NCBI RefSeq assembly: GCF_900626285.1
Contig: NZ_LR131147.1
Location: forward strand, 1,187,953-1,219,952
Direction: 5' to 3'
Length of the DNA: 32,000 nucleotides
DNA from: Intestinimonas massiliensis (ex Afouda et al. 2020)
GTDB lineage: Bacteria > Bacillota > Clostridia > Oscillospirales > Oscillospiraceae
Both the position numbers and the translations under genes were made by a program. Positions 3,797 through 31,247 of the stretch are shown here, in pieces. The first letter of the stretch is position 1, and each line of letters starts with the position of its first letter. Below the pieces are notes generated by a model that made no database searches, had not been told where the DNA came from, and saw nothing but the letters and a program-made list of their open reading frames with translations.

Positions 3797-5083
3797 TTAC
3801 TTGCGGTCCGCCAGCGCCACAAAGGGGCTGCGGGGCTTGGTGCTGTTCTTGATGGTCAGGGGCTTGCTCACCTTGGGGGCGCCGTTGCAACGGTACACAA
3901 CCCGGAAGCAGTTCTGATCGGTGAGGAATTCCACATGGATGGACCAGTCCTGCTTGACGGTACCCTTGGTCAGGAGGATGTACATAAAGGGATCCACCAG
4001 CATAATGTCACCAGCAGTACCCAGGGGGGAGCAGCTGTCTTCGAAGAGCACCGGCTTGTTGAGCACCCGCTGGGTATCGAAGTTGCCCAGGCCTCCCTCG
4101 GGGTTCCACAGGAACTTGGCCGCCTCGCCGCTCTGGATGGCCAGGCTGGGCAGCTGTTCCTCCACATCGGGGTGCATCAGCCACACCAGCCGGTCCCGGT
4201 TCCGGGGCATGGCCCGCGCCTGCATCTTGATGGCGTTGGCTCCCAGGAAAGTGCCGGCCGTCTGGCTCTGCTCCTTGGCCACAGTGATCAGGGCCTTGGA
4301 ATGGGTCAGACCCAGGGGCTTGCCTACGCCGTCGCCGCAGATGACACTCTCGGTGAGCAGCCGGTCCCCGGCCAGGGTGAAGGAAGAACTGGCAAAGCTG
4401 GTCATAAAGGCCGCATCCTCCAGCATTTCATCGGTACAGTAGAGGAAGCCCATCATCTTCTCCAGATCCATCTTCATCTCCCGGAACTGGGGCTTGCTGG
4501 CAGCCACCGCGGCCCCTTCACTGGCCCAGTACATCTGGACCCCGCCGAACACCGACTTGGACACGTCGGTCTCGTCAGCGCTTACCCACCGCATGGCGTT
4601 GGCAGAGCTTGAGCAGGTGTAGCGGTCCAGCCGGTTGAGCAGGGGGCTCTGCTGAACGGCGCTCTCCATGATCATGCCGGCAAAGTCGGTCTGAAGGGCA
4701 AAGCCGCCATCGGCACCGCTGCCCTCATTGGAGCCCAGGACAGCGTTATTCACCTGCTGGAGCCGCTTGTCCTCCACGTGATTCTTCCGGAATTTGTAGA
4801 TGGCCATCAGCTGTTCACCCACAGAGGCAAAGGGCTTGTCCTCATTCTTTCCCGCGATCTTGGCAGTGGGATTGTGCAGCGCGCCATCATAAACCGGCTC
4901 CGCCGCCTCCCGGCTGGCCTTTGCCAGTTTCTCCAGGCCGGCGATCTGGGTGTTGATAGCCTCCATCTGGTCCGAAATAGCGCTGGCCTCCGTGATCTTG
5001 CCATCGGTCACCAGGCCCTCGGCCTCCGTGAGCAGCTGGGCCTTTTTAGCCCGGAGCTCGGTGATCTTCTCCATGAAATCCAT
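3797..5083 (-). CDS. Major capsid protein, HK97 family
   Basis: 428 aa with an N-terminal coiled-coil delta domain (MDFMEKITELRAKKAQLLTEAEGL) followed by a capsid-like body. It follows the prohead protease gene. Confidence 0.88.
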   Translation of the reverse strand: MDFMEKITELRAKKAQLLTEAEGLVTDGKITEASAISDQMEAINTQIAGLEKLAKASREAAEPVYDGALHNPTAKIAGKNEDKPFASVGEQLMAIYKFRKNHVEDKRLQQVNNAVLGSNEGSGADGGFALQTDFAGMIMESAVQQSPLLNRLDRYTCSSSANAMRWVSADETDVSKSVFGGVQMYWASEGAAVAASKPQFREMKMDLEKMMGFLYCTDEMLEDAAFMTSFASSSFTLAGDRLLTESVICGDGVGKPLGLTHSKALITVAKEQSQTAGTFLGANAIKMQARAMPRNRDRLVWLMHPDVEEQLPSLAIQSGEAAKFLWNPEGGLGNFDTQRVLNKPVLFEDSCSPLGTAGDIMLVDPFMYILLTKGTVKQDWSIHVEFLTDQNCFRVVYRCNGAPKVSKPLTIKNSTKPRSPFVALADRK

Positions 5084-13181: not shown

Positions 13182-13265
13182 ATGCTCCGGCCCTCTGCCG
13201 GGCGCCCCGTATCTCCTACTACTACCCCACGTTGGTACGCAGGCCTTCAGATCAACAGGGCGCCC

Positions 13266-20832: not shown

Positions 20833-21030
20833 ATGCGTCAGTTGAGCACCAACGAATTGGATCAAATCGAGAGAGCCGTATTGGAACAGCTTAATGCTAG
20901 CGACGAAGGCCAGGGGGCGGAAGCGATGGCTAACGCCGTCACAAAACTGTCTGCCAGGGTATGCCGGCTCATGCTCCAGGAATACCAGCGTGCAGCTTCT
21001 GATCCAGAGCATCAGCAATCTGATTCATAA
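20833..21030 (+). CDS. Small hypothetical protein (65 aa)
   Basis: ATG at 20833 follows a GGGAGGAGGTGA SD. It overlaps a minus-strand small ORF convergently. Confidence 0.45.
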   Translation: MRQLSTNELDQIERAVLEQLNASDEGQGAEAMANAVTKLSARVCRLMLQEYQRAASDPEHQQSDS

Positions 21031-21118
21031 CCTGATTATTCAGGTCCGCCTGCGGCGTTTGTAGCTCCATTACAAACGCCGCAATTTCATCTGGGGTCCC
21101 AATAATCCGCATTTCCAT
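20969..21118 (-). CDS. Small hypothetical protein (49 aa, below the ORF-track cutoff)
   Basis: ATG at 21118 lies 6 nt after an AAGGTGA SD and 19 nt downstream of the cro-like stop. Translation is MEMRIIGTPDEIAAFVMELQTPQADLNNQVMNQIADALDQKLHAGIPGA. Confidence 0.4.
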   Translation of the reverse strand: MEMRIIGTPDEIAAFVMELQTPQADLNNQVMNQIADALDQKLHAGIPGA

Positions 21119-21136
21119 CCCCGCTCACCTTCTTTC

Positions 21137-21352
21137 TCAGCTCGCCGCATAGTTTCCATCCTTGGATATTTCCCGGCCATAGAGGGCGTCGATAGTGCAG
21201 TGAAGCAGATCAGCCAATGCCGGGAGTTTGTCCGCATTGGGCTTTGCCATACCCAGCTCCCACTTCCGCACAGCAACAACCGAAACGCCCAGACGATCCG
21301 CTAACTGTACCCTGGTCAACCCCATGGCCTCTCTAAGTTCCTTGATCCTCAT
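21137..21352 (-). CDS. Cro-like XRE HTH regulator
   Basis: 71 aa. MRIKELREAMGLTRVQLADRLGVSVVAVRKWELG is an XRE HTH. It is divergent from the CI-like repressor and has an AAAGGAGGTGA SD. Confidence 0.85.
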   Translation of the reverse strand: MRIKELREAMGLTRVQLADRLGVSVVAVRKWELGMAKPNADKLPALADLLHCTIDALYGREISKDGNYAAS

Positions 21353-21399
21353 ACAGCCTCACCTCCTTTGGGGCTTGTTCATATTTCTTCCATGTGATA

Positions 21400-21820
21400 G
21401 AATAAAACCACAGGTTTCCGGCGATAGGCTACGCCGAGCCGAGCCCTTTAGAGGGAAGGCGTAACGACTGGACACGGAGCATCCCACCGGGATGAAGGCA
21501 CAGTCTGAACTCATAGGTAACTATGAGAGGCGGGCAGAAATGACCCGTCCCTGCTTGTAGCAGAGTAACAATTTGGATGTCCATCGGTATTTCTGGCATG
21601 TCTAAGGCCCTTTGTGACTACGAAGGCATTGGCTCTGCCCTGCGCGAAGCTAATAGCCTCATGGAAGGTATTTCCGAGGCTACTTCTGGTTTCACCCGTT
21701 CCCTCAACTTTATGCCTACTGACGACGAGGTGAATTATCGCCCTGCTGCCTGGCAACAGGCGGTTTGCACTCCGTAAATTCGGCGGACACCTACCCGACC
21801 GGCAACCTGTGGTTTCATTC
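21400..21820 (-). ncRNA. Candidate ~420-nt structured 5' leader or ncRNA closed by a 22-bp long-range stem. Alternative explanations are a MITE or an invertible segment.
   Basis: 21400-21421 pairs with 21799-21820. There are 20 Watson-Crick pairs. One A/C pair on the plus strand becomes a G-U pair on the minus strand, and there is one mismatch. The interior is rich in local hairpins. No internal ORF has an SD. The predicted start of the leftward promoter coincides with 21820. Confidence 0.4.
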
Positions 21821-21827
21821 TGGCATA

Positions 21828-21856
21828 ATCATAATCCGTAAATTTATGTTTGTCAA
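21828..21856 (-). promoter_or_regulatory. Leftward early (cro) promoter
   Basis: On the minus strand: TTGACA (21856-21851), a 17-nt spacer, then TATGAT (21833-21828). The spacer contains one copy of the TAAATTTATGTTT repeat, a candidate operator. Confidence 0.55.
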
Positions 21857-21912
21857 TTCAATATCCTTAAATTTATGTTTTTTGTCATTCTGTCAAATTC
21901 TTTATATAAGGG
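21835..21912 (+). promoter_or_regulatory. Candidate operator repeats and rightward repressor promoter
   Basis: The 13-mer TAAATTTATGTTT occurs at 21839-21851 and 21868-21880. TCCGTAAATT occurs at 21771-21780 and 21835-21844. A weak sigma70-like signal is TTGTCA (21882-21887), 17 nt, TATAAG (21905-21910). Confidence 0.35.
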
Positions 21913-21923
21913 TGTGTTTTCCC

Positions 21924-22544
21924 TTGGACATTGATATTTTTGTGCAAAATGTAAAGGCCATCTGCAAAGCCAAGGGTACAAACCCAACTGCTGCCTGCGA
22001 AGCAAGCGGCGCTGGCCGTAATTTTATGGACAACATAAAAAAGGGGAGCATCCCCTCTGTGGCCAAGGTACAGATGCTAGCTGACTACCTTGGGGTGACC
22101 ACCAGCGAGCTGCTGGGCGAGGCTTCTGGTAGTTCTTCTGCCGGCATCCGTATTCCCGTACTTGGCACCATCCCGGCCGGCATCCCACTGGAGGCCATTG
22201 AGGACATTCTGGACTGGGAGGAGATCCCGGCGGCCTGGGGCTCCGGCGACCGGCAGTATTTTGGTCTTCGGGTCAAAGGGGACAGCATGTACCCCCGCTA
22301 TCTGGAGGGAGACACTGTCATCCTCCGCAAAGAAACGACCTGCGAGAGCGGCGACGACTGCGCCGTCTTAGTCAACGGCGAAGAGGCCACCCTCAAGCAG
22401 GTCATGATAAAAGGGGACGGCAGCCTGGAGCTGCGCCCCACCAATCCGGTTTATCCTCCGCGCATCTACTCCCCCGGCGAGATCGAATCCCTTCCCGTCC
22501 AGATCATCGGCGTGGTGGTAGAACTGCGGCGGAAGATAAAATAA
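21924..22544 (+). CDS. CI-type repressor with an S24 (LexA-like) autopeptidase domain
   Basis: TTG at 21924 follows AAGGGTG, with GTG at 21942 as the alternative start. N-terminal HTH (NFMDNIKKGSIPSVAKVQMLADYLGVTTSELLG). The C-terminus has GDSMYPRYLEGDTVILRK and a downstream Lys (ATLKQV), forming a Ser/Lys dyad. Confidence 0.88.
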   Translation: MDIDIFVQNVKAICKAKGTNPTAACEASGAGRNFMDNIKKGSIPSVAKVQMLADYLGVTTSELLGEASGSSSAGIRIPVLGTIPAGIPLEAIEDILDWEEIPAAWGSGDRQYFGLRVKGDSMYPRYLEGDTVILRKETTCESGDDCAVLVNGEEATLKQVMIKGDGSLELRPTNPVYPPRIYSPGEIESLPVQIIGVVVELRRKIK

Positions 22545-22592
22545 AAAAGTGTCCAAGTTGGACACAAAAAGAGAGAGGATGGAGGATTTAGC

Positions 22593-23684
22593 ATGGATTT
22601 TATTGACCAACTAAAGCAGTTTTCAAAGCGTGTGGAGAGTATGAAAGATTCAATTTCCACAGAAGAAGCCACAAAAACGGCCATTATCATGCCCTTTTTC
22701 TCCATGCTCGGGTATGATGTTTTCAATCCTCAGGAATTTGTCCCGGAGTTTACTGCAGATGTGGGAATTAAGAAAGGTGAGAAAGTTGACTATGCCATCA
22801 TCAAAGATGGCGATCCGGTAATCCTCATAGAGTGCAAGTCGATATCTGAAAACCTGGATAGGCACGACTCTCAGTTGTTCCGTTATTTTGGAACAACTAC
22901 CGCAAAGTTCGCTATCCTTACAAATGGCATTGTATATCGTTTCTATACGGATCTGGATAACCCAAACAAAATGGATGATGACCCCTTCCTGACTATCAAT
23001 ATTCTTGATATCCGGGAAAATCAGGTTCCTGAACTCAAAAAATTCTGTAAGTCTGTTTTTGATATTGACTCCATTTTTAGCACCGCATCTGAGCTAAAAT
23101 ATGTTCACGAATTCAAGTCAGTTTTCACCGAGCAGCTCAATAACCCCTCTGACGATCTTCTCCGCTTTTTCCTCCAGGATTGCTACTCCGCCCCGAAAAC
23201 GCAAAGTGTTTTGGAAAAATTCCGTCCCATTTTAAAAAAAGCACTCAACGATCTTATCAGTGAAATGATGAATGATAAGATCAAAACTGCCTTGGGAGGC
23301 AGCGGGGGCAACGTCTCTATCAGTGACAGCAAAACAGCTGAAGAACCTGCTACCACTGTTACAGAGCAGCCGGAAGATGAGAAAAAGGCCCCCAACATTG
23401 TCACAACCGAAGAAGAGTTGGAGGCCTTTTTCATTATCAAGAATCTTTTGTCTGATATTGTAGATATCCATGACATTACCTATAAGGATACCGAATCGTA
23501 TATCAACATCCTGTATAAAGCGAACACCAGGAAGTGGATCTGTCGGCTTCGCCTAACCGAGAATCTCAAAACACTAATTATCCCAGATGAGAACAAAAAA
23601 GACATCAAGTACCCTCTCGCAGATATCTATGACCTCAAAGGCTATCACGACCAGCTTGCAGAAGTTCTCCAGCGATACATATAA
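22593..23684 (+). CDS. Stand-alone PD-(D/E)xK nuclease-like protein (HsdR N-terminal-domain type) with an unassigned C-terminal domain
   Basis: GGAGGA SD. The N-terminal ~100 aa are EEATKTAIIMPFFSMLGYDV...EKVDYAII...PVILIECKS...QLFRYF, which gives D66...E80-x-K82. The region is visibly AT-richer than its flanks. Confidence 0.75.
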   Translation: MDFIDQLKQFSKRVESMKDSISTEEATKTAIIMPFFSMLGYDVFNPQEFVPEFTADVGIKKGEKVDYAIIKDGDPVILIECKSISENLDRHDSQLFRYFGTTTAKFAILTNGIVYRFYTDLDNPNKMDDDPFLTINILDIRENQVPELKKFCKSVFDIDSIFSTASELKYVHEFKSVFTEQLNNPSDDLLRFFLQDCYSAPKTQSVLEKFRPILKKALNDLISEMMNDKIKTALGGSGGNVSISDSKTAEEPATTVTEQPEDEKKAPNIVTTEEELEAFFIIKNLLSDIVDIHDITYKDTESYINILYKANTRKWICRLRLTENLKTLIIPDENKKDIKYPLADIYDLKGYHDQLAEVLQRYI

Positions 23685-23805
23685 TTGCATTTGACAAGTG
23701 GTGGCCTGTGAAAGATCACCCCCGGACATGGTCTGAAACATAAAAAGAGCCGGGGCTTTCGCCCCGGCCATGCTAAAAACACCTCCACCCAGGTATTTAG
23801 GATAA

Positions 23806-24588
23806 TTGAAAGGTGTGATAATCTTGGAGCCAAATGAGCTAAAGGAAAAAGCACTTGATGATCTATCTGCTTTTTTAGACTCTCTCGATCCAAAGCGGTG
23901 TCGCGTTTTATCCTACTGGATCAGTGACTATGTTCGTTTTCTCCGTAAAGAAGATGAATTTGACCCTAAAAAGCTGGTTCGTTATAAGCGGGGTTCTATT
24001 GTAAAAGTTCATCTCGGTTACCGAATCGGAAGTGAAGAAGGTGGCCTGCATTATGCTGTTGTGTTGGATGTGAAAAATGCACTGTCCTCTAACACCGTCA
24101 CCATTATACCCCTCACTTCAATTAAAGAAAGCACTGATTTGGACAATTTGCACTTTACTAAGATTAGTCTTGGAGACGAGATTTATCTGACCTTGAGCGA
24201 AAAGCTGACCGCTGCGACCGCTGATATAAAAGCAATTCAGGATGCCTTGTCTGCAAAACTTGACAAAATAGAGGCGAATCCATTTGATCCTTCCGCACCT
24301 GACTATAAGATCCGCCTGGCAGAACGACGCACGGAGATTATGGTATTGCGAGAACAACTGGAAATTTGGAAACGCAAGGCATTAAATGTGATGCGGCTCG
24401 AGAAAGAAATTGGGAAAATGAAACGTGGCAGCATAGCGCTAGTCGGGCAGATCACTACAGTCAGTAAAATTCGCATTTACGATCCCCTTTATCCATCTGA
24501 TTCTCTGGCAAGCATCCATCTCTCTGATGCTGCATTGGACAAACTGGACCAAAAAGTGAAAGAGCTTTATACTTACGAAAAGAAATAA
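23806..24588 (+). CDS. Oversized MazF/PemK-like protein with a ~100-aa helical insertion
   Basis: KRGSIVKVHLGYRIGSEEGGLHYAVVLD...VTIIPLTS matches the MazF N-terminal strands. KRGSIALVGQITTVSKIRI (aa ~206-224) matches the C-terminal strands. There is no ATG start. Candidates are TTG 23806, GTG 23815 and TTG 23824, the last lying 8 nt after AAAGGTG. Confidence 0.7.
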   Translation: MKGVIILEPNELKEKALDDLSAFLDSLDPKRCRVLSYWISDYVRFLRKEDEFDPKKLVRYKRGSIVKVHLGYRIGSEEGGLHYAVVLDVKNALSSNTVTIIPLTSIKESTDLDNLHFTKISLGDEIYLTLSEKLTAATADIKAIQDALSAKLDKIEANPFDPSAPDYKIRLAERRTEIMVLREQLEIWKRKALNVMRLEKEIGKMKRGSIALVGQITTVSKIRIYDPLYPSDSLASIHLSDAALDKLDQKVKELYTYEKK

Positions 24589-24615
24589 TTGGGTGTACGA
24601 GGACATGCAACAAAC

Positions 24616-24644
24616 TTGACAATTTGCATATCCTGTGATAGGAT
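24616..24644 (+). promoter_or_regulatory. Sigma70-type promoter with an extended -10
   Basis: TTGACA (24616-24621), a 17-nt spacer ending in TGA, then TAGGAT (24639-24644). Confidence 0.45.
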
Positions 24645-24716
24645 GATTAAGCAAACAGAGCCGTTTACCGGCGCTGTAAAAGACTTAGCCGCTTGCCGGC
24701 ACTTGAAAAATCATCC

Positions 24717-24747
24717 GAAAGGGCCGCCCATTTTGGGCGGCCCTTTC
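24717..24747. terminator. 13-bp GC-rich hairpin (terminator or attenuator-like) in the integrase leader
   Basis: gaaagggccgccc, loop atttt, gggcggccctttc. Short T tracts follow on both strands. Confidence 0.45.
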
Positions 24748-24848
24748 ACATGTTTATGAACCTGTACAGTCTTGGAACCCTTTCACCTTATCGTATGCAG
24801 CAGCACAAAAAGCATTTTACTCTCCATGCAAAGAGAAGGAGATTGGAA

Positions 24849-25886
24849 ATGAAAGCAAAGCTGAAGAATCCGACGCCGGTGCAGCTTCCATCCGGCTCCT
24901 GGCGCTGTCAGGTGATGGTCAATGGCCAGCGGATCAGTGTGGTAGATCAGGATCCCGCTGTGGCTCACGCCAAGGCCCTGGCTCTGAAGGCAGGGATTAT
25001 CCATAAGAATAAATCCCCTCAGGCCATGACCGTAGGGGATGCCATTGATCGCTATATAGAAAGCAAGGACAGCGTCCTCTCCCCTGCCACCGTAGCTGGG
25101 TACAAGCGGCTGCGGGAACACGCCCTCCAGGAGCTGATGGGTATCCGCCTGTCCATGCTGACGCAGGAAGCCGTCCAACGGGCCGTGAACAAGATGGCCA
25201 AGGACAAGTCGCCAAAGAGCGTGAGAAACGCCCACGGCCTCCTCAGCGCTGCTCTGGCCGTCTATCGGCCCGACATGGTGCTGCGCACCACACTGCCGCA
25301 GAAGAAGCGCTATGAGGCAGCCGTGCCGTCTGGAGAGGATGTGCAGGCCATCATGGCAGCCGCCAGGAGCACAAAGGAGGAGTTGCCCATCCTGCTGGCC
25401 GTCTGGCTTGGCCTCCGGATGTCGGAGATCCTGGGCTTGAAGGGTGAGGATGTAGACGGAAACGTCCTCCATATCCGCCGGGCACTGGTGGACGAGGGCG
25501 AGAAGGGCACAAAGACCTATGGCTCCCAGCGGGATCTGCCGCTCCCGGACTATATCAGGAGCCTGATGGATCCCAAGCCAGGCGAACACCTTGTGAAGCT
25601 CACCAGGCGTTCTCTGTACTGCCGGTTCCAGGCCGTGTGCAAAAAAGCCGGTGTGCAGCACTACCGCTTCCACGATCTGCGGCATATCAATGCCTCGGTC
25701 ATGCTGGCTCTGGGCGTCCCAAACAAGTACGCCCAGGAGCGCATGGGGCATGCCACTGACAACATGCTCAAGACCGTCTATCAGCACACAATGAGCGCCG
25801 AGAGTGCTGAAGCTGCCCAGCAGGTAGACGCCTATTTCAGCAACATTTTGCACACGATTTTACACACAGATTCCGAGGATACCTAG
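24849..25886 (+). CDS. int: Tyrosine recombinase (phage integrase)
   Basis: Start moved to ATG 24849, which follows an AAGGAG SD. SAM-like N-terminal domain. Catalytic signature: LRMSEILGL (Arg), HDLRH (His-x-x-Arg) and a C-terminal Tyr (LKTVYQHT). Confidence 0.9.
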   Translation: MKAKLKNPTPVQLPSGSWRCQVMVNGQRISVVDQDPAVAHAKALALKAGIIHKNKSPQAMTVGDAIDRYIESKDSVLSPATVAGYKRLREHALQELMGIRLSMLTQEAVQRAVNKMAKDKSPKSVRNAHGLLSAALAVYRPDMVLRTTLPQKKRYEAAVPSGEDVQAIMAAARSTKEELPILLAVWLGLRMSEILGLKGEDVDGNVLHIRRALVDEGEKGTKTYGSQRDLPLPDYIRSLMDPKPGEHLVKLTRRSLYCRFQAVCKKAGVQHYRFHDLRHINASVMLALGVPNKYAQERMGHATDNMLKTVYQHTMSAESAEAAQQVDAYFSNILHTILHTDSEDT

Positions 25887-25913
25887 AGCCACAGCCGATT
25901 AAGCGAAATAATA

Positions 25914-25943
25914 TGCCGGGTTCGAATCCCCGACGGGTCACCA
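25914..25943 (+). other. tRNA 3'-end fragment (T-arm, acceptor 3' strand, discriminator, CCA). Probable att core duplicate.
   Basis: gccgggTTCGAATccccgacgggtcaCCA. The ~45 nt upstream have no complementary 5' acceptor strand and no D or anticodon arms. It lies directly after int. Confidence 0.65.
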
Positions 25944-25952
25944 TAAAATCAA

Positions 25953-25997
25953 AACGGTATAGATGCCACTGGCGAAAAGCCAGTGGCATCAACCGTT
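25953..25997 (+). terminator. Long hairpin downstream of the tRNA fragment (likely the native tRNA terminator)
   Basis: A 12-bp stem (gatgccactggc pairing with gccagtggcatc) with a GAAAA loop, extended by acggt/accgt. A second small hairpin lies at 26000-26016. Confidence 0.4.
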
Positions 25998-26115
25998 TCC
26001 GGGCTTTTTTAGCCCGAAAATCCATGGATTCTTCCATAGATGCCAACCGCTGTTTCCCCCTAACTGATGGGATTCGAACCCCCATTTTTCAGCAGCTGGC
26101 AAAGACAAAACCATG

Positions 26116-26161
26116 CGGCGCCCTTTTTGAAGGAATCATTTTCAAAAAGGGCGCCGTTTTT
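26116..26161 (+). terminator. Strong Rho-independent terminator-like hairpin
   Basis: A 16-bp stem (cggcgccctttttgaa pairing with ttcaaaaagggcgccg) with a 9-nt loop, followed by TTTTT. Confidence 0.6.
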
Positions 26162-26284
26162 CATATGCAAATATTTCACGAAATTGAGGGCGCCGTTTTG
26201 TTGGTCTTGATGATCATCAAAGCAGCGCCCTTTTTTTGTTCCCCCCAAAAACCAAAAAGGGCGCCAGCCCAAGGAGGTCGGAAA

Positions 26285-26953
26285 ATGAACAAGGAATTGT
26301 ATTTTAACGAACTGGGGATTGTCTTGGGACAGTCTGGGTTCACCACGCAACCGGAACAGGATGGCCACCTCCCTGTGGAGTATGAAGGCCGACGATTGTG
26401 CCGGGTTAATGCAGGCGGTAGCGTTTTCTACAACCAGGATGATGTGACTACTCTGGACCGAGAGGCGGCCTGCAGAAGGGTCACGGATTCGGCCGCAATT
26501 GTCCAGGAATACATGACATTGTTGGAGCGAGCGTCTATCCTCAACGCGGCTGGGCTACACGAGCCGTACAGGGCACTGATCGAATTCAATGGTACAGTAC
26601 TGGCTGGACGGCAGACAGACCACGGCGCTAAATTTGTCACCTGGGATTGGGATTTTAACCACTCCGGTCTCAACCAAGGCCATTACTACGAAGGAGACTA
26701 TTCTGGAGCAAAGCAGGACTTTGCGGTCCGGTCAGGGCTTGTTCCCTATGAACGGCAGTTTACGCCTGAGCAGCTCATAGAGATCTATCAGCAGTGCTCC
26801 TATGTGGCATTCAGCTGTGAGCTATCCAGAGAACAGGAGAAGGCTATTCAAGAAATCCAAGACAGGATCCAGGAGCTGGTGCCGGACTATAGGGAACGGT
26901 TCATGCAAAGCCTGGACGAATACGATAGCCCTGGCCTGGAACCGACTATGTGA
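26285..26953 (+). CDS. Hypothetical protein
   Basis: ATG at 26285 follows an AAGGAGG SD. The ORF-track N-terminal extension spans terminators and was rejected. Confidence 0.65.
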   Translation: MNKELYFNELGIVLGQSGFTTQPEQDGHLPVEYEGRRLCRVNAGGSVFYNQDDVTTLDREAACRRVTDSAAIVQEYMTLLERASILNAAGLHEPYRALIEFNGTVLAGRQTDHGAKFVTWDWDFNHSGLNQGHYYEGDYSGAKQDFAVRSGLVPYERQFTPEQLIEIYQQCSYVAFSCELSREQEKAIQEIQDRIQELVPDYRERFMQSLDEYDSPGLEPTM

Positions 26954-27062
26954 CGCTGATGGCCGCAAGTTCAGAACAGATAAGGAGGTGATGGAAATGC
27001 AGTAGATATTTCTCCCACGGTGTGGTATGTTGTGTGCTTACCAGAGGAAGGAGGTGAAACCG

Positions 27063-28109
27063 ATGAACCAACACGCAGCGAGAACAAGTGAAAACGGAGT
27101 CCTGTTGAGGCCCGCTTCCCTTGAGGAGGCGGGCCTTTTCTATTCGGAACTGGACGCGGAACAGGACAAGGCATTGGGGACGGTAGGACATATCCGTATG
27201 GATTTCGGCCACAACGGGAAGGAGTTCTGGCATACCTGGTGGCCCCACAACGAGGATCAGCTCAACACCCCGGAGTTTAAGGATGAACTGCAAACCATCG
27301 TGGATACCCTTCGGACGGATGGGCCGCTGAAAGATCTGACGGCGATGCGCAGCTTCTGTGCCCAGAACGGCGGAGCCATCACCAGAGATGGGCGCAGCTT
27401 CGGCTACGTGGTGGAGACAGGCCGCTACCGCTACTGTCTGCGCTGCACCCCCAGTCCCGGCGATTACCAGGGATACCTGTACTGCTATGATAAGCAGCAG
27501 CAGAAGCTGGCCCATCAGGTAAAGCTGGTAGGCCGGGTGACCTATGCAGATGGTACCAAGCAGGAGTTTACTGACCCACAGCAGTATCTCCGAACCATCA
27601 GAGAGGAACTGCCGTACCGCAATACGACAGGATTCCGGTATGAAACCCTTACCGAGAGCCCGCAGGTCAAAAAGGCTGTGGATGATATCATCCTGGGTTT
27701 TGCCGGCGAGGAAAATCCCAAGCAGGTGTGCGATTATGGCCTGACGGAGAAGGGGGCACAGATGCTTCGGGATGCAGCAGACCCATCCCTCCCCCACACC
27801 TACGCCTGGTTTGTGCTGACAGACTACAACACCGCCCAGGAGCAGCTTCTCTGTGAGCTGACATTGGAGGAGGCGATCCAGATCTACCAGAACTGTGACA
27901 CCCTGGAGAAACGCCTCGGCGTCACCAAGGATTCCATCGCAACTGTGGATATCGTCCACATGGCAGGTGGGGATCAGAGATTCTTTACAGACTATCAGAA
28001 GCTGGAAAGCTTCAAAACGGATCCGGTCATTTACGAGGCGGTAGATCAGCTGCATCAGGAGCTGGTACAGAGCAGCTCCGCACAAAATATGAATATGGGG
28101 GGTATGTAA
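27063..28109 (+). CDS. Hypothetical protein (conjugative-element associated)
   Basis: ATG at 27063 follows a GGAGGTGA SD. 348 aa. No family confidently recognised. Confidence 0.7.
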   Translation: MNQHAARTSENGVLLRPASLEEAGLFYSELDAEQDKALGTVGHIRMDFGHNGKEFWHTWWPHNEDQLNTPEFKDELQTIVDTLRTDGPLKDLTAMRSFCAQNGGAITRDGRSFGYVVETGRYRYCLRCTPSPGDYQGYLYCYDKQQQKLAHQVKLVGRVTYADGTKQEFTDPQQYLRTIREELPYRNTTGFRYETLTESPQVKKAVDDIILGFAGEENPKQVCDYGLTEKGAQMLRDAADPSLPHTYAWFVLTDYNTAQEQLLCELTLEEAIQIYQNCDTLEKRLGVTKDSIATVDIVHMAGGDQRFFTDYQKLESFKTDPVIYEAVDQLHQELVQSSSAQNMNMGGM

Positions 28110-28110
28110 A

Positions 28111-29085
28111 GTGACTGTGGAAAAGGAATGGCTGGACTTCCTGCGGGATCAATATCCCAAGGGGAGCCGTATCCGGCTTATCGAGATGAAAGGCGATCCG
28201 TACCCGATTGCCCCTGGCAGTATGGGCACACTGGAAGACATCGATGATGCCGGACAGTTCCACGTCAAGTGGGATAACGGCAGCGGGCTTGCCTTAATTT
28301 TCGGCGAGGACCGCTTCAGGGTTCTGCCTCTGGAGCCTCAGACACTGAAGTTCTACATGCCTCTCACAGCCCAACTCTATGGCCGCGATGACTGGGGCGA
28401 TATGGAGGAGTACGGCAATGAGCTGGATGGACGGGAGCTTCGGAAGTTTGCGGGTAATATCCGGGACGCACTGTTGGAAAACCGGACGTCAGAGGAGGAT
28501 GCCCGGGGCCTGATGCACTGGTATGATAAGCAGGATGGTGTAGAGGCAAAGGTACAGTCAGTGGTATTTGAGGTGGAAGACCGGGATGGACAGCTCTGGG
28601 GCGTGGCGGAGTGCAAGGTAATTGGTGAACTTCTGCCGGAGGAAAAAGAAGCCCTGGCTGAATACATTTCAGGCCAAGCCTCAGATGGCTGGGGCGAGGG
28701 CTTCGAGCAGCGCCCCATCGAACTGGATGAAGGGGAACTCTATGTCAGCCTCTGGAATTCGAGCGACTGGAGTATTCAGACAGAGACGGAGAGATTCTCG
28801 CCGGACGCACAATCCCGCCTGCCGGACCTGTGCTGGACGGTGCTGCCCAGCGACGGAACCCTGATCTGTATCAAACGGGGCGAGAGCGGATACTACGTGA
28901 GCGACTGGAATACGGACAGCCCGGAGCAAAACCGCTGCCTGGCCGATTACAACAACAAAAAGCGTGGTATTACACCCGCTCAGGAGCAGGCCATGCTCAC
29001 CGGAAGTATGTGTGGGTGGAATGTGCCGGGAGCAGACCCCAAATGTTACGAATCACAGCAGCATGGTGGAATGACCATCGGCTAA
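28111..29085 (+). CDS. DUF4314-like domain protein
   Basis: GTG at 28111 lies 1 nt after the upstream stop. The N-terminus GDPYPIAPGSMGTLEDIDDAGQFHVKWDNGSGLALIFGEDRF matches the DUF4314 signature from memory. Confidence 0.7.
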   Translation: MTVEKEWLDFLRDQYPKGSRIRLIEMKGDPYPIAPGSMGTLEDIDDAGQFHVKWDNGSGLALIFGEDRFRVLPLEPQTLKFYMPLTAQLYGRDDWGDMEEYGNELDGRELRKFAGNIRDALLENRTSEEDARGLMHWYDKQDGVEAKVQSVVFEVEDRDGQLWGVAECKVIGELLPEEKEALAEYISGQASDGWGEGFEQRPIELDEGELYVSLWNSSDWSIQTETERFSPDAQSRLPDLCWTVLPSDGTLICIKRGESGYYVSDWNTDSPEQNRCLADYNNKKRGITPAQEQAMLTGSMCGWNVPGADPKCYESQQHGGMTIG

Positions 29086-29103
29086 AAAGGAGATGGAACC
29101 GAT

Positions 29104-29577
29104 ATGACACTTGAAATTACCGATATCTTTGGCAACCGCGTACAACTGCAGCCAAGAGTGGAACTCTACTCCGTCCGCGACTTCATGGGCCAGGAACTGC
29201 CCGGCCTGGCCATTGCTCTGGATGAGATCGTGGACGAGCCCTATGGCATGGAACCCTATGCAACCCTTACGGTCTCCTTCGGGGAATTCATCGGGCTGAA
29301 AAACAGCGCCTACATCGACACCAACAACTGCCGCTTCGCGCAGCAGCTTCTGAACCAGGGAATCGCGGTGGATACCGGGCTGCGGAAATACAGCGGCTTC
29401 TGCGAATACCCGCTCTGGGGCTTCAAGCAGGAATTTCTGGAGGAGATCGGCGGTGAAAACTACGCCGAGTATTCCCGGTGTTATGACGCATACATGAAGG
29501 CGGTCGAGGAGCGGCTCAGCGCCGAGGAGAACTTTGACCCCACGGAACACACCCAGGGCGGAATGACCATGCAGTGA
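29104..29577 (+). CDS. DUF4313-like protein
   Basis: AAGGAG SD. EPYATLTVSFGEFIGLKNSAYIDTNNCRFAQQLLNQGIAVDTG...SGFCEYPLW matches the DUF4313 pattern from memory. Confidence 0.7.
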   Translation: MTLEITDIFGNRVQLQPRVELYSVRDFMGQELPGLAIALDEIVDEPYGMEPYATLTVSFGEFIGLKNSAYIDTNNCRFAQQLLNQGIAVDTGLRKYSGFCEYPLWGFKQEFLEEIGGENYAEYSRCYDAYMKAVEERLSAEENFDPTEHTQGGMTMQ

Positions 29578-29619
29578 TCATCCCGCCCCATTATTTTGCC
29601 CGAGCGAGGAGTGATTGCT

Positions 29620-30222
29620 TTGAAGAAAACCTTTTCTGTATATGTAAGCCCGCTGGAAATGGACAGCCCGCTGGGCAGGCTGACGGATCTGCCCATGGAA
29701 CAGGAAAAGCTGAACGGCCTCCTGCTGGAGCTGAATACCGGTCAGCCGCTCTATGTGGAGATCTCGGACTACTGCGGCCGGGACTACCTGGCAGGGCATC
29801 TGCCGGAGGATATGAAGCTGACGGAGCTGAATCTGCTGGCCTGTAAGCTGGCAGACCTGACACCCTGGCAAAACGCCTCCTTTGAGGGCCTTGTCCGCAT
29901 GGATCTGGACAAGGGGATGGAGGAGCTGCCCCTGAACCGTCTGATCGACCTGGCCAACAGTGTGGATTGCTGCCATGTGGTTGCAGAGGCCGGGAATGAT
30001 GAACAGCTGGGCCATTTCTATGTGGACAACGACTTCCCAGTCCTGCCGGCCGGACTGCCGGAGGAGGTATACGAACTGCTGGATTATGGGGCCATCGGCC
30101 GCAAGGCCAGGATGGAAGAGGGCGGCGTCTTTACCTCCAGGGGATACGTGGTGCAGCACAGTGATCTGGATGTGAGCTATTCCCAGAGCCAGGGCGGTCC
30201 GAGCATGGAGGTGGGACTATGA
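29620..30222 (+). CDS. ArdA-like antirestriction protein
   Basis: TTG at 29620 lies 8 nt after GAGGAG. The ORF is open from 29596. The acidic C-terminal half (EQLGHFYVDNDFPVLPAGLPEEVYELLDYGAIGRKARMEEGGVFTSRGYVV) resembles the ArdA C-terminus. Confidence 0.55.
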   Translation: MKKTFSVYVSPLEMDSPLGRLTDLPMEQEKLNGLLLELNTGQPLYVEISDYCGRDYLAGHLPEDMKLTELNLLACKLADLTPWQNASFEGLVRMDLDKGMEELPLNRLIDLANSVDCCHVVAEAGNDEQLGHFYVDNDFPVLPAGLPEEVYELLDYGAIGRKARMEEGGVFTSRGYVVQHSDLDVSYSQSQGGPSMEVGL

Positions 30223-31247
30223 GGGCCAGCCTCTTCGATGCCCTGGACGGTATGGAGATGGGCAAGTCTGAGCATGACTGGCTGGAGCAGCGGTTCGGAA
30301 GCATGACCGTGAAAGAGAGACTGTTGTTTCAGGGCGCTATGCAGCTGGAGCATCCGCAGACCGTTGAGGAGACCCTCCGGGTTCTGATCGGACTGGATCA
30401 ATACCGACTCCTCTATGGTGCGGATGATGATGTAGCCCTGGGGCGATTCGTTATGGAGCATATTCACATCCCTACTCGCCCAGCACGAGGTTATCTTGAC
30501 CCGGAGATTGTTGGGACTGCCTATCGGGAAAGCGGAGACGGATGTTTTCTGGAGGGCCACTATGTGGAACGCATCAGCCCCGGCCACTCGCTCCCCGAAT
30601 TGGAACCAGATGCCGTACTGCCCGCGACTGGCGACTATGCCATCCGGATTAAGTTGGCCAGCCGGAGCAACCTGGAAGGTGTCTGGGTGGGCTTCCCTGA
30701 CACGGGAGAATACATGGACACCGCTCACCCGGATGAACTGCTCCTGGGGCTGGACGCCCTGGATGCGGAGACCCTGGAGCAGTGCATTGCGGTGGATGTG
30801 GACTGTGCCCTGCCCCAGCTCACAAATATCCTCTCCCAGTATGACTCCGCCGGAGAACTGGTGCGGCACGCCATTGACTTCGGCTATGTCTGGGCGGAAC
30901 AGGGCCAGGGGGAAGCCCACTGGTTGGAGAAATGGCAGGCAGTGCTGGAGCTGGAGGACTGCCACCGGCTGGACCAGGCTCTGGACCTCTCCCAGAATCT
31001 CCACTGCTATGAATTCATCCCCCGCGGCGTGGACTTCGCTCAATACGGTGCGGAGTTGGCGCGCAAGGAGGGCATACTCGGGCAGGACCCGTTGCTCAAC
31101 CAGTGCTTTGACACCGTAGCATACGCCCAGCATCATATGGCGAAGTTTGGCCTGTCTGCCACAGACCACGGCTATGTTGCCTGGAATGGGCAAGAACTCA
31201 ACTACGAGTACAGTAAGCCGGAGCATGGACCGGCAATGACCATGTAA
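30219..31247 (+). CDS. ArdA-like repeat protein (putative antirestriction)
   Basis: ATGA overlap with the upstream gene and a GGAGGTGGG SD. Two segments resemble the ArdA C-terminal module: ALGRFVMEHIHIP...GHYVERI and FAQYGAELARKEG...DHGYVAWNG. Confidence 0.5.
   Translation: MRASLFDALDGMEMGKSEHDWLEQRFGSMTVKERLLFQGAMQLEHPQTVEETLRVLIGLDQYRLLYGADDDVALGRFVMEHIHIPTRPARGYLDPEIVGTAYRESGDGCFLEGHYVERISPGHSLPELEPDAVLPATGDYAIRIKLASRSNLEGVWVGFPDTGEYMDTAHPDELLLGLDALDAETLEQCIAVDVDCALPQLTNILSQYDSAGELVRHAIDFGYVWAEQGQGEAHWLEKWQAVLELEDCHRLDQALDLSQNLHCYEFIPRGVDFAQYGAELARKEGILGQDPLLNQCFDTVAYAQHHMAKFGLSATDHGYVAWNGQELNYEYSKPEHGPAMTM

Follow-up and report, generated by a model that had tools for sequence, protein, structure and literature searches.

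We examined a 32,000-nucleotide window of the Intestinimonas massiliensis genome (contig NZ_LR131147.1, positions 1,187,953 to 1,219,952), in which two adjacent genes lie in the lysogeny region of a prophage, and found that the second of them is followed by a previously unannotated, predicted small RNA gene with a conserved promoter, core and terminator. Gene 1 encodes a stand-alone HsdR-N-type nuclease and gene 2 a split MazF/PemK-fold protein that is predicted to belong to the Sma family of antiphage proteins. An earlier sequence-only reading of this stretch had proposed that the two genes form a functional pair. It was found instead that they are two unrelated, independently moving cargo cassettes stacked in one variable slot next to the integrase gene, int, with cassette A comprising gene 1 and its 3' hairpin and cassette B comprising gene 2 and the small RNA gene just downstream. 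On balance, we consider it probable that cassette B is a type III-like toxin-RNA abortive-infection module stacked beside an independent nuclease gene, and the conserved RNA unit is the finding most worth pursuing. The features of the two cassettes are as follows, with all positions counted from the first letter of the window.

22593..23684, plus strand: gene 1, HsdR-N-type PD-(D/E)xK endonuclease, 363 aa (Pfam HSDR_N 9.9e-16, HSDR_N_2 4.1e-08)
23748-23769: GC-rich hairpin 3' of gene 1, with a T-run on the minus strand only (terminator scan)
23806..24588, plus strand: gene 2, predicted Sma-family split MazF/PemK-fold protein, 260 aa (Pfam PemK_toxin 2e-9; phrog_1412 3e-46)
24616..24644, plus strand: sigma-70-type promoter of the small RNA, TTGACA-17 nt-TG-n-TAGGAT (promoter scan, 10/12 matches, extended -10)
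24645..24750, plus strand: predicted small RNA of ~100 nt with a predicted transcription start site, a candidate antitoxin or regulator of gene 2 (profile, covariance and fold evidence)
24654-24657, plus strand: AACA motif of the small RNA (conserved core)
24660-24663/24669-24672, plus strand: hairpin 1 of the small RNA (conserved core)
24680-24684, plus strand: invariant AAGAC of the small RNA (conserved core)
24688-24691/24697-24700, plus strand: hairpin 2 of the small RNA (conserved core)
24717-24747, plus strand: terminator hairpin of the small RNA (terminator scan)

A conserved small RNA unit follows gene 2

The spacer 3' of gene 2 retained 79-91% identity at loci where the gene 2 proteins were just 55-57% identical to that of the window and the recombinases were unrelated, and the identity of the promoter plus RNA (0.81) was higher than that of the gene 2 coding sequence (0.62). 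When 12 diverse loci were aligned, the -35 and extended -10 elements were invariant or nearly so at a fixed spacing, and they were followed by a conserved core of AACA-hairpin-AAGAC-hairpin and by a terminator whose sequence varied while its pairing was preserved.

The association of this unit with gene 2 was assessed in both directions. Of 98 gene 2 loci, 80 matched a sequence profile of the unit (nhmmer), in every case on the strand of gene 2 and with a start ranging from 6 nt ahead of the gene 2 stop as called to 35 nt past it; of the 91 loci that carried gene 1 only, none matched. A covariance model recovered 10 further gene 2 loci together with two weak matches, gave no match at locus L005 and matched none of 27 controls, so that the unit was found in total in 90 of the 95 gene 2 loci having any downstream sequence. 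In the reverse test, a degenerate pattern of the core matched exactly at 57 sites among 2.9 M viral contigs. Upstream of 47 of these sites lay a same-strand open reading frame (ORF) of the gene 2 family, which ended 24-81 nt before the core motif in 46 of the 47.

The RNA stems were also supported by covariation. Paired bases made up 89.7% of the stem cells compared to 78.8% in shuffled alignments, with 0 of 500 shuffles reaching the observed values, and double-sided changes were recorded for 11 of 12 pairs, while controls with slid partners were 28-65% paired. Hairpin 2 was mis-registered in the MAFFT alignment and was therefore excluded from the covariance model and parsed separately, and it was noted to covary as well. 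The RNA of the window folds with -46.7 kcal/mol (z = -5.36). The RNA appears to be built of approximately two tandem units (AA[A/G]AC, hairpin, linker) with a period of 26-38 nt; a repeat search detected them in L038, L039, L032, L037, L080 and Staphylococcus phage phiMR25, and a shared unit architecture is visible in the alignments.

No Rfam family matched the RNA, and at E-values up to 10 the scan returned only noise centered on the terminator. Repeats in the style of type III systems were not found upstream of gene 2, as the interval 21000-26500 holds two trivial tandem repeats only, and the upstream spacer of gene 2 in its relatives is as short as 47 nt. In the literature searched, no PemK/MazF-like solo toxin was reported to have an RNA partner, and searches on solo or fused MazF-like defense led to papers that cite Sma. 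The sequence-only reading had stated that gene 2 has no antitoxin. This is right for protein antitoxins, in that no conserved small ORF was found beside gene 2 in the window or at the homologous loci examined, and no MazE/AbrB family was present among the 25 of 30 matched families listed in a Pfam scan of the 34 window ORFs. It does not hold overall, since a candidate RNA lies downstream. The passing suggestion of an RNA as the restraint on the toxin gained a concrete candidate in the conserved unit 3' of gene 2, and this RNA may be the missing antitoxin.

Gene 1 and gene 2 are independent cassettes

We searched IMG/VR loci seeded on either gene with hidden Markov models of both families. None of the 80 gene 1-seeded loci held gene 2, and just two of the 80 gene 2-seeded loci (L066 and L067, which represent one element) held gene 1. 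The functional pair, for which the sequence-only reading had itself named co-occurrence in other genomes as the check, failed on these counts. Close gene 1 homologues (87-90% identity) were encountered in repressor-recombinase intervals without gene 2, with serine recombinases or other genes directly after them. Gene 2 homologues (55-87% identity) in turn had a tyrosine or serine recombinase directly downstream and no gene 1, and this includes the homologue at 87% identity. Among individual phages, Streptococcus phage Javan316 carries gene 1 alone, and Javan166 and phiMR25 carry gene 2 alone.

The identity profiles of the two families also contrast, which indicates that their histories differ. 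The gene 1 family comprised at least 8,000 scored proteins, of which the best 120 matches were at 76-95% identity, while the identities of gene 2 homologues dropped to about 60% beyond the first three matches. Additionally, either gene has its own 3' element. A 30-nt stretch including the hairpin after gene 1 (window 23740-23769) was 93% identical directly after gene 1 homologues at L013 (4367-4396), L014-L016 and L110 (6093-6122) in other prophages, and this hairpin is part of cassette A. Taken together, the lack of co-occurrence in seeded loci, the relatives without a partner and the separate 3' elements identify two independent cassettes. Whatever the role of the RNA, two genes that adjoin each other in the cargo slot beside int cannot be taken as a functional pair on that ground.

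Gene 2 encodes a split MazF/PemK-fold protein

Gene 2 matched the Pfam PemK_toxin family (PF02452) with 38.1 bits (cut-off 23.1), across profile positions 1-50 of 109 only. A profile of 41 gene 2 homologues aligned both barrel halves to Bacillus MazF, with chain residues 4-52 and 67-106 of MazF corresponding to query residues 57-104 and 199-238. An AlphaFold2 model with a predicted local distance difference test score (pLDDT) of 84 placed N-terminal helices at residues 9-26 and 29-49 and inserted helices at 125-157 and 167-203. From this examination, the layout of the protein is a helical hairpin (9-49), a half-barrel (~61-121), an antiparallel coiled-coil hairpin (125-203), a second half-barrel (~207-240) and a C-terminal helix (241-255). 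The best Foldseek matches of the model in the PDB were CcdB chains, with a target-normalized template modeling score (TM-score) of 0.70 in an alignment that crosses the insert. The two MazF barrel halves, the helical insertion and the N-terminal extension of ~55 aa that had been read from the translation were all recovered by the profile alignment or by structure prediction.

The Thr48, Ser73 and Gln79 equivalents of MazF are kept in gene 2 as Thr104, Ser209 and Gln215. An invariant His82 takes the place of the MazF catalytic Arg, and His was found at the Arg25 position in every aligned member of the family; we take the catalytic residues of MazF to be Arg25 in Bacillus subtilis (Arg29 in Escherichia coli) and Thr48 (Thr52). 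The family comprises 1,233 clusters at 50% identity (E <= 1e-3), and within it W38, D41 and Y42 of an N-terminal helix motif and the boundaries of the insert are invariant.

It was noted that the start of gene 2 is ambiguous, with TTG 23806, GTG 23815 and TTG 23824 all in frame. The GTG 23815 start is used by a 99%-identical homologue (P0001, 257 aa), and TTG 23824 sits 8 nt past a Shine-Dalgarno-like AAAGGTG site. The labels of the family in PHROG 1412 and in phage GenBank records also conflict, and include 'antitoxin mazE-like', 'PemK/MazF family toxin', 'repressor protein' and 'pathogenicity island protein'. The 'antitoxin' label is unsupported by the present analyses.

Gene 2 is related to the probable Sma protein of SaPIpT1028

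The primary source on the antiphage system Sma is Fillol-Salom 2022 (Cell 185:3248). In the passages of two later papers that mention it, Sma is named a 'single-protein' system (PMC12409344, PMC12829572; also cited in PMC12948488). The staphylococcal island SaPIpT1028 (AY954948) carries a single PemK-like ORF, ORF005, which encodes 265 aa, adjoins the integrase gene and lies after it. We infer that ORF005 is Sma, because it is the only MazF-like ORF on the island. ORF005 matched the gene 2 profile over its full length with 77.5 bits, and a profile comparison (hhalign) gave 98.9% probability with an E-value of 1.3e-17 over 230 columns, while a direct BLASTP alignment showed 24% identity (E 2e-14). 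Both proteins possess the N-terminal YW helix, GSE..GGH with His for Arg, IPL(T/S)S, a long helical insert and a C-terminal LDKLDxKI helix. This homology makes gene 2 a distant and probable member of an antiphage family that is already known.

The two loci share further characteristics. Each gene lies on a mobile element beside an integrase gene, no protein antitoxin was found in either case, and a promoter, two hairpins and a terminator come after the stop codon of both. In SaPIpT1028 (L190) this unit was observed past ORF005 at 4494-4606 on the minus strand, where a promoter, TTGACT-17-TATATT, overlaps the stop and is followed by two small hairpins and a terminator. It is a candidate counterpart of the window RNA at the probable sma locus. 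The same promoter-hairpins-terminator layout follows orf2 of phiMR25, as determined in both cases by manual inspection with promoter and terminator scans. In contrast, gene 2 resides in a high-GC prophage of the gut Clostridia type between the repressor gene and int, whereas ORF005 belongs to a staphylococcal satellite and lies after int. The downstream RNA is also absent from the descriptions of Sma in the relevant passages of the citing papers, and the published sma clone may include roughly 120 bp of downstream DNA. It was also noted that SaPIpT1028 carries a TscT/TscA toxin-antitoxin pair.

A defense role had been proposed for the two genes jointly. For gene 2 it is now plausible through the probable Sma homologue, which is reported as antiphage where PMC12409344 mentions it. 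The description of the cassette as possibly uncharacterized was half right, since the gene 2 family includes a published antiphage system and both genes fall into PHROG families, while a literature search found no functional study of either family. PADLOC 2.0.0 gave no match for gene 2; as none of its models recognizes ORF005 either, the absent match says nothing on novelty, and the proposed PADLOC check is uninformative here.

Comparison with known systems and a proposed mechanism

ToxN, the toxin of a type III system, has a Kid/MazF-like fold, and the antitoxin RNAs of type III systems comprise 2-5.5 repeats of 34-45 nt. Cassette B resembles these in combining a predicted RNase-type toxin with a small structured RNA of apparent short tandem units (here ~2, of 26-38 nt). 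Other shared traits would be the location on mobile elements, an abortive-infection role and an RNA expected in excess over the toxin, with the roles in cassette B being putative. The known type III toxin-antitoxin and abortive-infection systems include ToxIN, AbiQ-antiQ, CptIN and TenpIN (Blower et al. 2012, PMC3401426). Gene 2 differs from their toxins in that its sole match above a curated cut-off is to Pfam PemK and not to ToxN, CptN or TenpN, so the likeness is at the fold level only, and the units of the window RNA are predicted hairpins rather than pseudoknots. Because the gene order is reversed and the toxin falls outside ToxN, CptN and TenpN, we describe cassette B as working like a type III system and not as a member of one.

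We also compared gene 2 with other toxins. AbiF-RCd22, from a Clostridioides difficile prophage, consists of an abortive-infection toxin that is neutralized through direct RNA-protein interaction by an adjacent non-coding RNA with two conserved motifs (10.1101/2025.04.15.648962). Cassette B likewise places a putative prophage-borne toxin gene beside a predicted non-coding RNA with two motifs. However, the AbiF toxin is of the Abi_2/AbiD/F type and related to Cas13, and the motif of the window RNA differs, with no abiF match in the Rfam scan. Relative to type II MazEF and PemIK systems, gene 2 has a PemK match above the gathering score, both barrel halves and conserved Thr, Ser and Gln equivalents, but differs in its insert of ~80 aa, its N-terminal extension, the invariant His and the lack of an adjacent MazE/PemI gene. 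In GajC of type II Gabija, the beta1-beta2 loop is required for immunity (PMC13069673). Compared by its published description, GajC is unlike gene 2 in that it requires the GajB helicase and is an E. coli system, and the gene 2 insert is a two-helix hairpin (PMC13069673).

The proposed mechanism covers RNase activity, RNA-protein binding, antitoxin function, a trigger and expression in the lysogen. The split-MazF protein would be an endoribonuclease with a site formed by Thr104, Ser209 and Gln215 and by His82 in place of the catalytic Arg. In the lysogen, the ~100-nt RNA would keep this RNase inactive, with its two hairpin-plus-AAGAC units serving as pseudo-substrates or binding sites in the manner of type III systems. 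Transcription of the RNA would start at its near-consensus promoter and would also reach it by read-through out of gene 2, so that the RNA should be in excess over the protein. Infection by another phage, through transcription shut-off, RNA decay or a trigger protein, would then lower the RNA-to-protein ratio, which would free the RNase and abort the infection.

A broader proposal is that there is a fourth, inverted type III-like family, in which Sma-like split-MazF proteins (~1,200 clusters at 50% identity) act as toxins and a downstream two-unit RNA under its own promoter as the antitoxin, and that stray RNA cores are phage decoy antitoxins. We put this forward tentatively, as a possibility that falls somewhat short of an even chance. 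If the RNA is the antitoxin, a system published as 'single-protein' would actually have two components, and the activation of Sma-like systems would have to be studied as RNA decay or transcription shut-off rather than as direct protein sensing. A large branch with a PemK/MazF-type toxin and the opposite gene order would be added to the type III class, and gut Clostridia, streptococci and staphylococci carry this branch widely in their prophages and satellites. Annotations of partnerless proteins as 'type II PemK/MazF toxin' or 'antitoxin mazE-like' could then be corrected.

Alternative explanations

The adjacency of the two genes could reflect one obligate defense or abortive-infection pair, with gene 1 as a DNase-like sensor or effector that restrains or activates gene 2 as an RNase-like toxin. 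In the window the two genes share a strand and a similar AT-richness, the order of gene 1 and then gene 2 recurs in the L066/L067 element with proteins that are only 52% and 43% identical, and a split-MazF effector with a helicase partner is known in GajC-GajB of type II Gabija (PMC13069673). We nevertheless regard an obligate pair as highly improbable, as it is largely refuted by the co-occurrence counts; the gene 2 allele of L066 is present without gene 1 in many loci, and the partnerless nearest relatives, the differing family histories and the separate conserved 3' elements stand against it as well. It is also very unlikely that gene 2 has no defense role and acts as a lysogeny or recombination accessory, such as a directionality or regulatory factor built on a CcdB/MazF-like fold. 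This would fit the same-strand recombinase found immediately downstream in 61 of 74 informative gene 2 loci, but these recombinases belong to two unrelated families (29 Tyr and 32 Ser, with classes cross-checked by Pfam), and other cargo such as Uma2, Abi_2, HicB or KilA-N is interposed in 8 of 38 representative loci. The SaPIpT1028 gene is located after int, the reported antiphage activity of the probable homologue Sma points to defense (PMC12409344, where it mentions the system), and the RNA-binding and catalytic Thr, Ser and Gln positions of MazF are conserved. Least credible is a small protein antitoxin encoded 3' of gene 2. A 56-codon ORF (24589..24759) does span the RNA region in the window, and partly similar peptides occur in a few close relatives. 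However, no ORF is conserved in this region, the longest ORFs across 22 loci ranging from 12 to 56 codons in differing frames and with differing starts; the window ORF would have to cross the terminator hairpin, the indels are not multiples of three, and the stems vary by compensatory pairs.

The main rival is an autonomous protein accompanied by an RNA in another regulatory role. Gene 2 would then truly be a single-protein system, auto-inhibited by its N-terminal hairpin and coiled-coil insert, and the downstream unit would be a 3' untranslated region, terminator or insulator, or a small RNA with another target such as int or lysogeny genes. This fits the published 'single-protein' naming in the passages that mention Sma (PMC12409344, PMC12829572), and the invariant W38, D41, Y42 and insert boundaries would suit an intramolecular regulatory module. 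The unit also lies between gene 2 and int in most loci, and the RNA repeats of the window are degenerate. On the other hand, a plain terminator would retain neither a near-consensus promoter nor an invariant AAGAC/AACA core, and it would not exceed the coding sequence in conservation. The unit stays between -6 and +35 nt from the gene 2 stop whatever the recombinase family, even where genes are interposed (L071, L099). It is also present in SaPIpT1028, where no recombinase comes after ORF005, and is absent from the 91 recombinase-adjacent gene 1 loci. We therefore consider an autonomous protein rather unlikely, though it deserves more weight than any of the three explanations above.

Several observations also weigh against a type III-like toxin-RNA module beside an independent nuclease. 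Here the RNA is downstream of the toxin gene, has its own promoter and comprises ~2 units, whereas in known type III systems it is upstream with a terminator between the two. A repeat search found no repeats in the RNA of the window itself, whose two units are too diverged, and the covariance model and nhmmer both miss the unit in phiMR25 and SaPIpT1028. Many of the loci are near-duplicates, with 41 distinct RNA sequences among 81, and the core motif was also encountered in two other phage contexts without gene 2. The 'single-protein' name argues for Sma acting without a partner, as far as the passages that use it go. The equation of ORF005 with Sma is itself drawn from its place as the sole MazF-like ORF of the island, and the role proposed for gene 1 from its domain and position.

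The two contexts without gene 2 form distinct groups. In group A (L193, L195, L201, L202, L213 and L216), the RNA core comes after a 276-aa ORF with a hydrophobic N-terminal segment and no relative of gene 2 is present. In group B (L206, L210 and L229), which likewise has no gene 2 relative, the core lies in a longer leader after an ORF of ~145 aa, and L206 and L229 have a TerS-like ORF about 1 kb downstream. These copies may serve the phages as decoy RNAs, similar to the pseudo-ToxI of phage PhiTE, or may act together with other proteins.

Gene 1 encodes a conserved stand-alone nuclease

Gene 1 matched PHROG 4225 ("endonuclease") over its full length (1.1e-138). The HsdR N-terminal nuclease signature that had been noted in its translation is confirmed by the Pfam HSDR_N match, and D66, E80 and K82, together with Q94 and Y98, are invariant among 27 homologues, including those from Oscillospiraceae, Streptococcus, Lactococcus and Bacillus. 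The Q94xxxY98 pair presumably corresponds to the QxxxY motif of HsdR nuclease domains. The first ~230 residues are unusually conserved (residues 1-235, window 22593-23300), with long invariant runs such as ADVGIKKGEKVDYA and HDSQLFRYF common to the same four groups. Full-length homologues at 41-50% identity were found in Porphyromonas, Fusobacterium, Corynebacterium and Pseudomonas phages, and a Klebsiella phage homologue showed 32% identity across 91% of the query. This N-terminal conservation and broad distribution are unusual for a prophage accessory gene.

Similar to type I HsdR, gene 1 possesses the HSDR_N domain with a D...ExK triad and QxxxY. In contrast to HsdR, it has an extra helical region and a C-terminal alpha/beta domain, and lacks helicase/ATPase domains and adjacent HsdM/HsdS. 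It had been read as lacking type I partners, and accordingly no helicase Pfam match was found, its neighbors are the repressor gene and gene 2, and its homologues stand alone too. The AlphaFold2 model (pLDDT 76) comprises the N-terminal nuclease domain, a helical region, a disordered acidic linker (233-268) and a C-terminal domain. The latter, which had been noted as a separate domain, is real: it forms a confident alpha-beta5-alpha domain at 273-362 (pLDDT ~90). Foldseek searches of the model against the PDB gave no significant match; likenesses of the C-terminal domain to the MotA C-terminal domain (MotA-CTD) and YkuJ were weak, as were matches to the N-terminal domain of EcoR124I HsdR. A PDB sequence search with gene 1 gave no match, an NCBIfam search gave no significant match, and PADLOC returned no system model and a weak IIG match only.

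Source records name the family "endonuclease", "type I restriction endonuclease" and "predicted type IV restriction endonuclease". The nuclease of gene 1 is independent of gene 2, catalogued but uncharacterized, and its domain and position suggest a probable role as a restriction-like or abortive-infection DNase that the lysogen produces. Its family constitutes an unusually conserved and very abundant group of prophage endonucleases without an assigned function.

The prophage and the slot next to int

The window contains a myovirus-type prophage, with tail sheath, portal, capsid, TerL/TerS, DnaB and methylase genes identified in the Pfam scan. Both plus-strand genes, with ORFs of 363 and 260 aa, lie between the S24 repressor gene and int as described earlier, with int beginning at ATG 24850 and not at 24849 as first given. 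The flanking features are as follows.

21765..22544, plus strand: CI-type repressor, helix-turn-helix (HTH) and S24 peptidase (Pfam PF00717 1.3e-23; HTH_26/HTH_3 weak); the true start is probably internal to this ORF
24850..25886, plus strand: tyrosine integrase, int (Pfam PF00589 2.2e-16; ATG 24850 with an AAGGAG ribosome-binding site)
25915-25934, plus strand: fragment resembling a tRNA T-arm and 3' end, GCCGGGTTCGAATCCCCGAC, 29 nt past the int stop (seen in the terminator scan)

The AT-richness of the two genes, previously judged by eye, was borne out by computation. Their combined GC content is 42.5% (gene 1 41.8%, gene 2 42.4%), compared to 59.4 ± 3.3% (standard deviation) with a minimum of 52.5% in same-size windows across the rest of the stretch (z = -5.1). 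The GC content at third codon positions is 0.49 in gene 1 and 0.41 in gene 2, compared to 0.65 in the repressor gene and 0.63 in int. As had been stated, the terminator scan found no plus-strand terminator of the hairpin-plus-T-run type from the repressor gene through gene 2. For the hairpins at 22549-22565 and 23748-23769 the T-run is confined to the minus strand, and a bidirectional terminator at 24717-24747 comes ahead of int. The position 3' of the repressor gene and the lack of a plus-strand terminator are compatible with expression of both genes in the lysogen.

The earlier description of the interval between repressor and int as a hotspot for superinfection-exclusion and defense genes agrees with its occupancy elsewhere as a variable cargo slot. 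Gene 2 had a same-strand recombinase downstream of it in 72 of 74 informative loci, as did gene 1 in 58 of 63. In the eight representative gene 2 loci with extra cargo before the recombinase (L031, L047, L071, L082, L088, L099, L106 and L107), this cargo includes Uma2-type nucleases (3 loci), Abi_2, HicB, KilA-N and zinc-ribbon proteins, which marks the interval as a hotspot for defense-like genes.

The tRNA-like fragment at 25915-25934 is probably the attachment (att) core at the right end of the prophage; no complete tRNA is present within the window. In contig L006, gene 2 and int are 99% identical to those of the window, yet holin and amidase genes come next, and this differing junction after int suggests an attP or circular form in L006. 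To the right of the prophage end, plus-strand ORFs in window 25913-31247 matched ArdA (twice), PcfJ, DUF3102, DUF4313 and DUF4314. As these are typical of conjugative elements, the prophage appears to lie beside or inside another mobile element. A DUF3800-VIII RNA motif was also recorded by Rfam at 13201-13264 on the minus strand (57.2 bits; gathering score 40.2), within the minus-strand gene block of the prophage.

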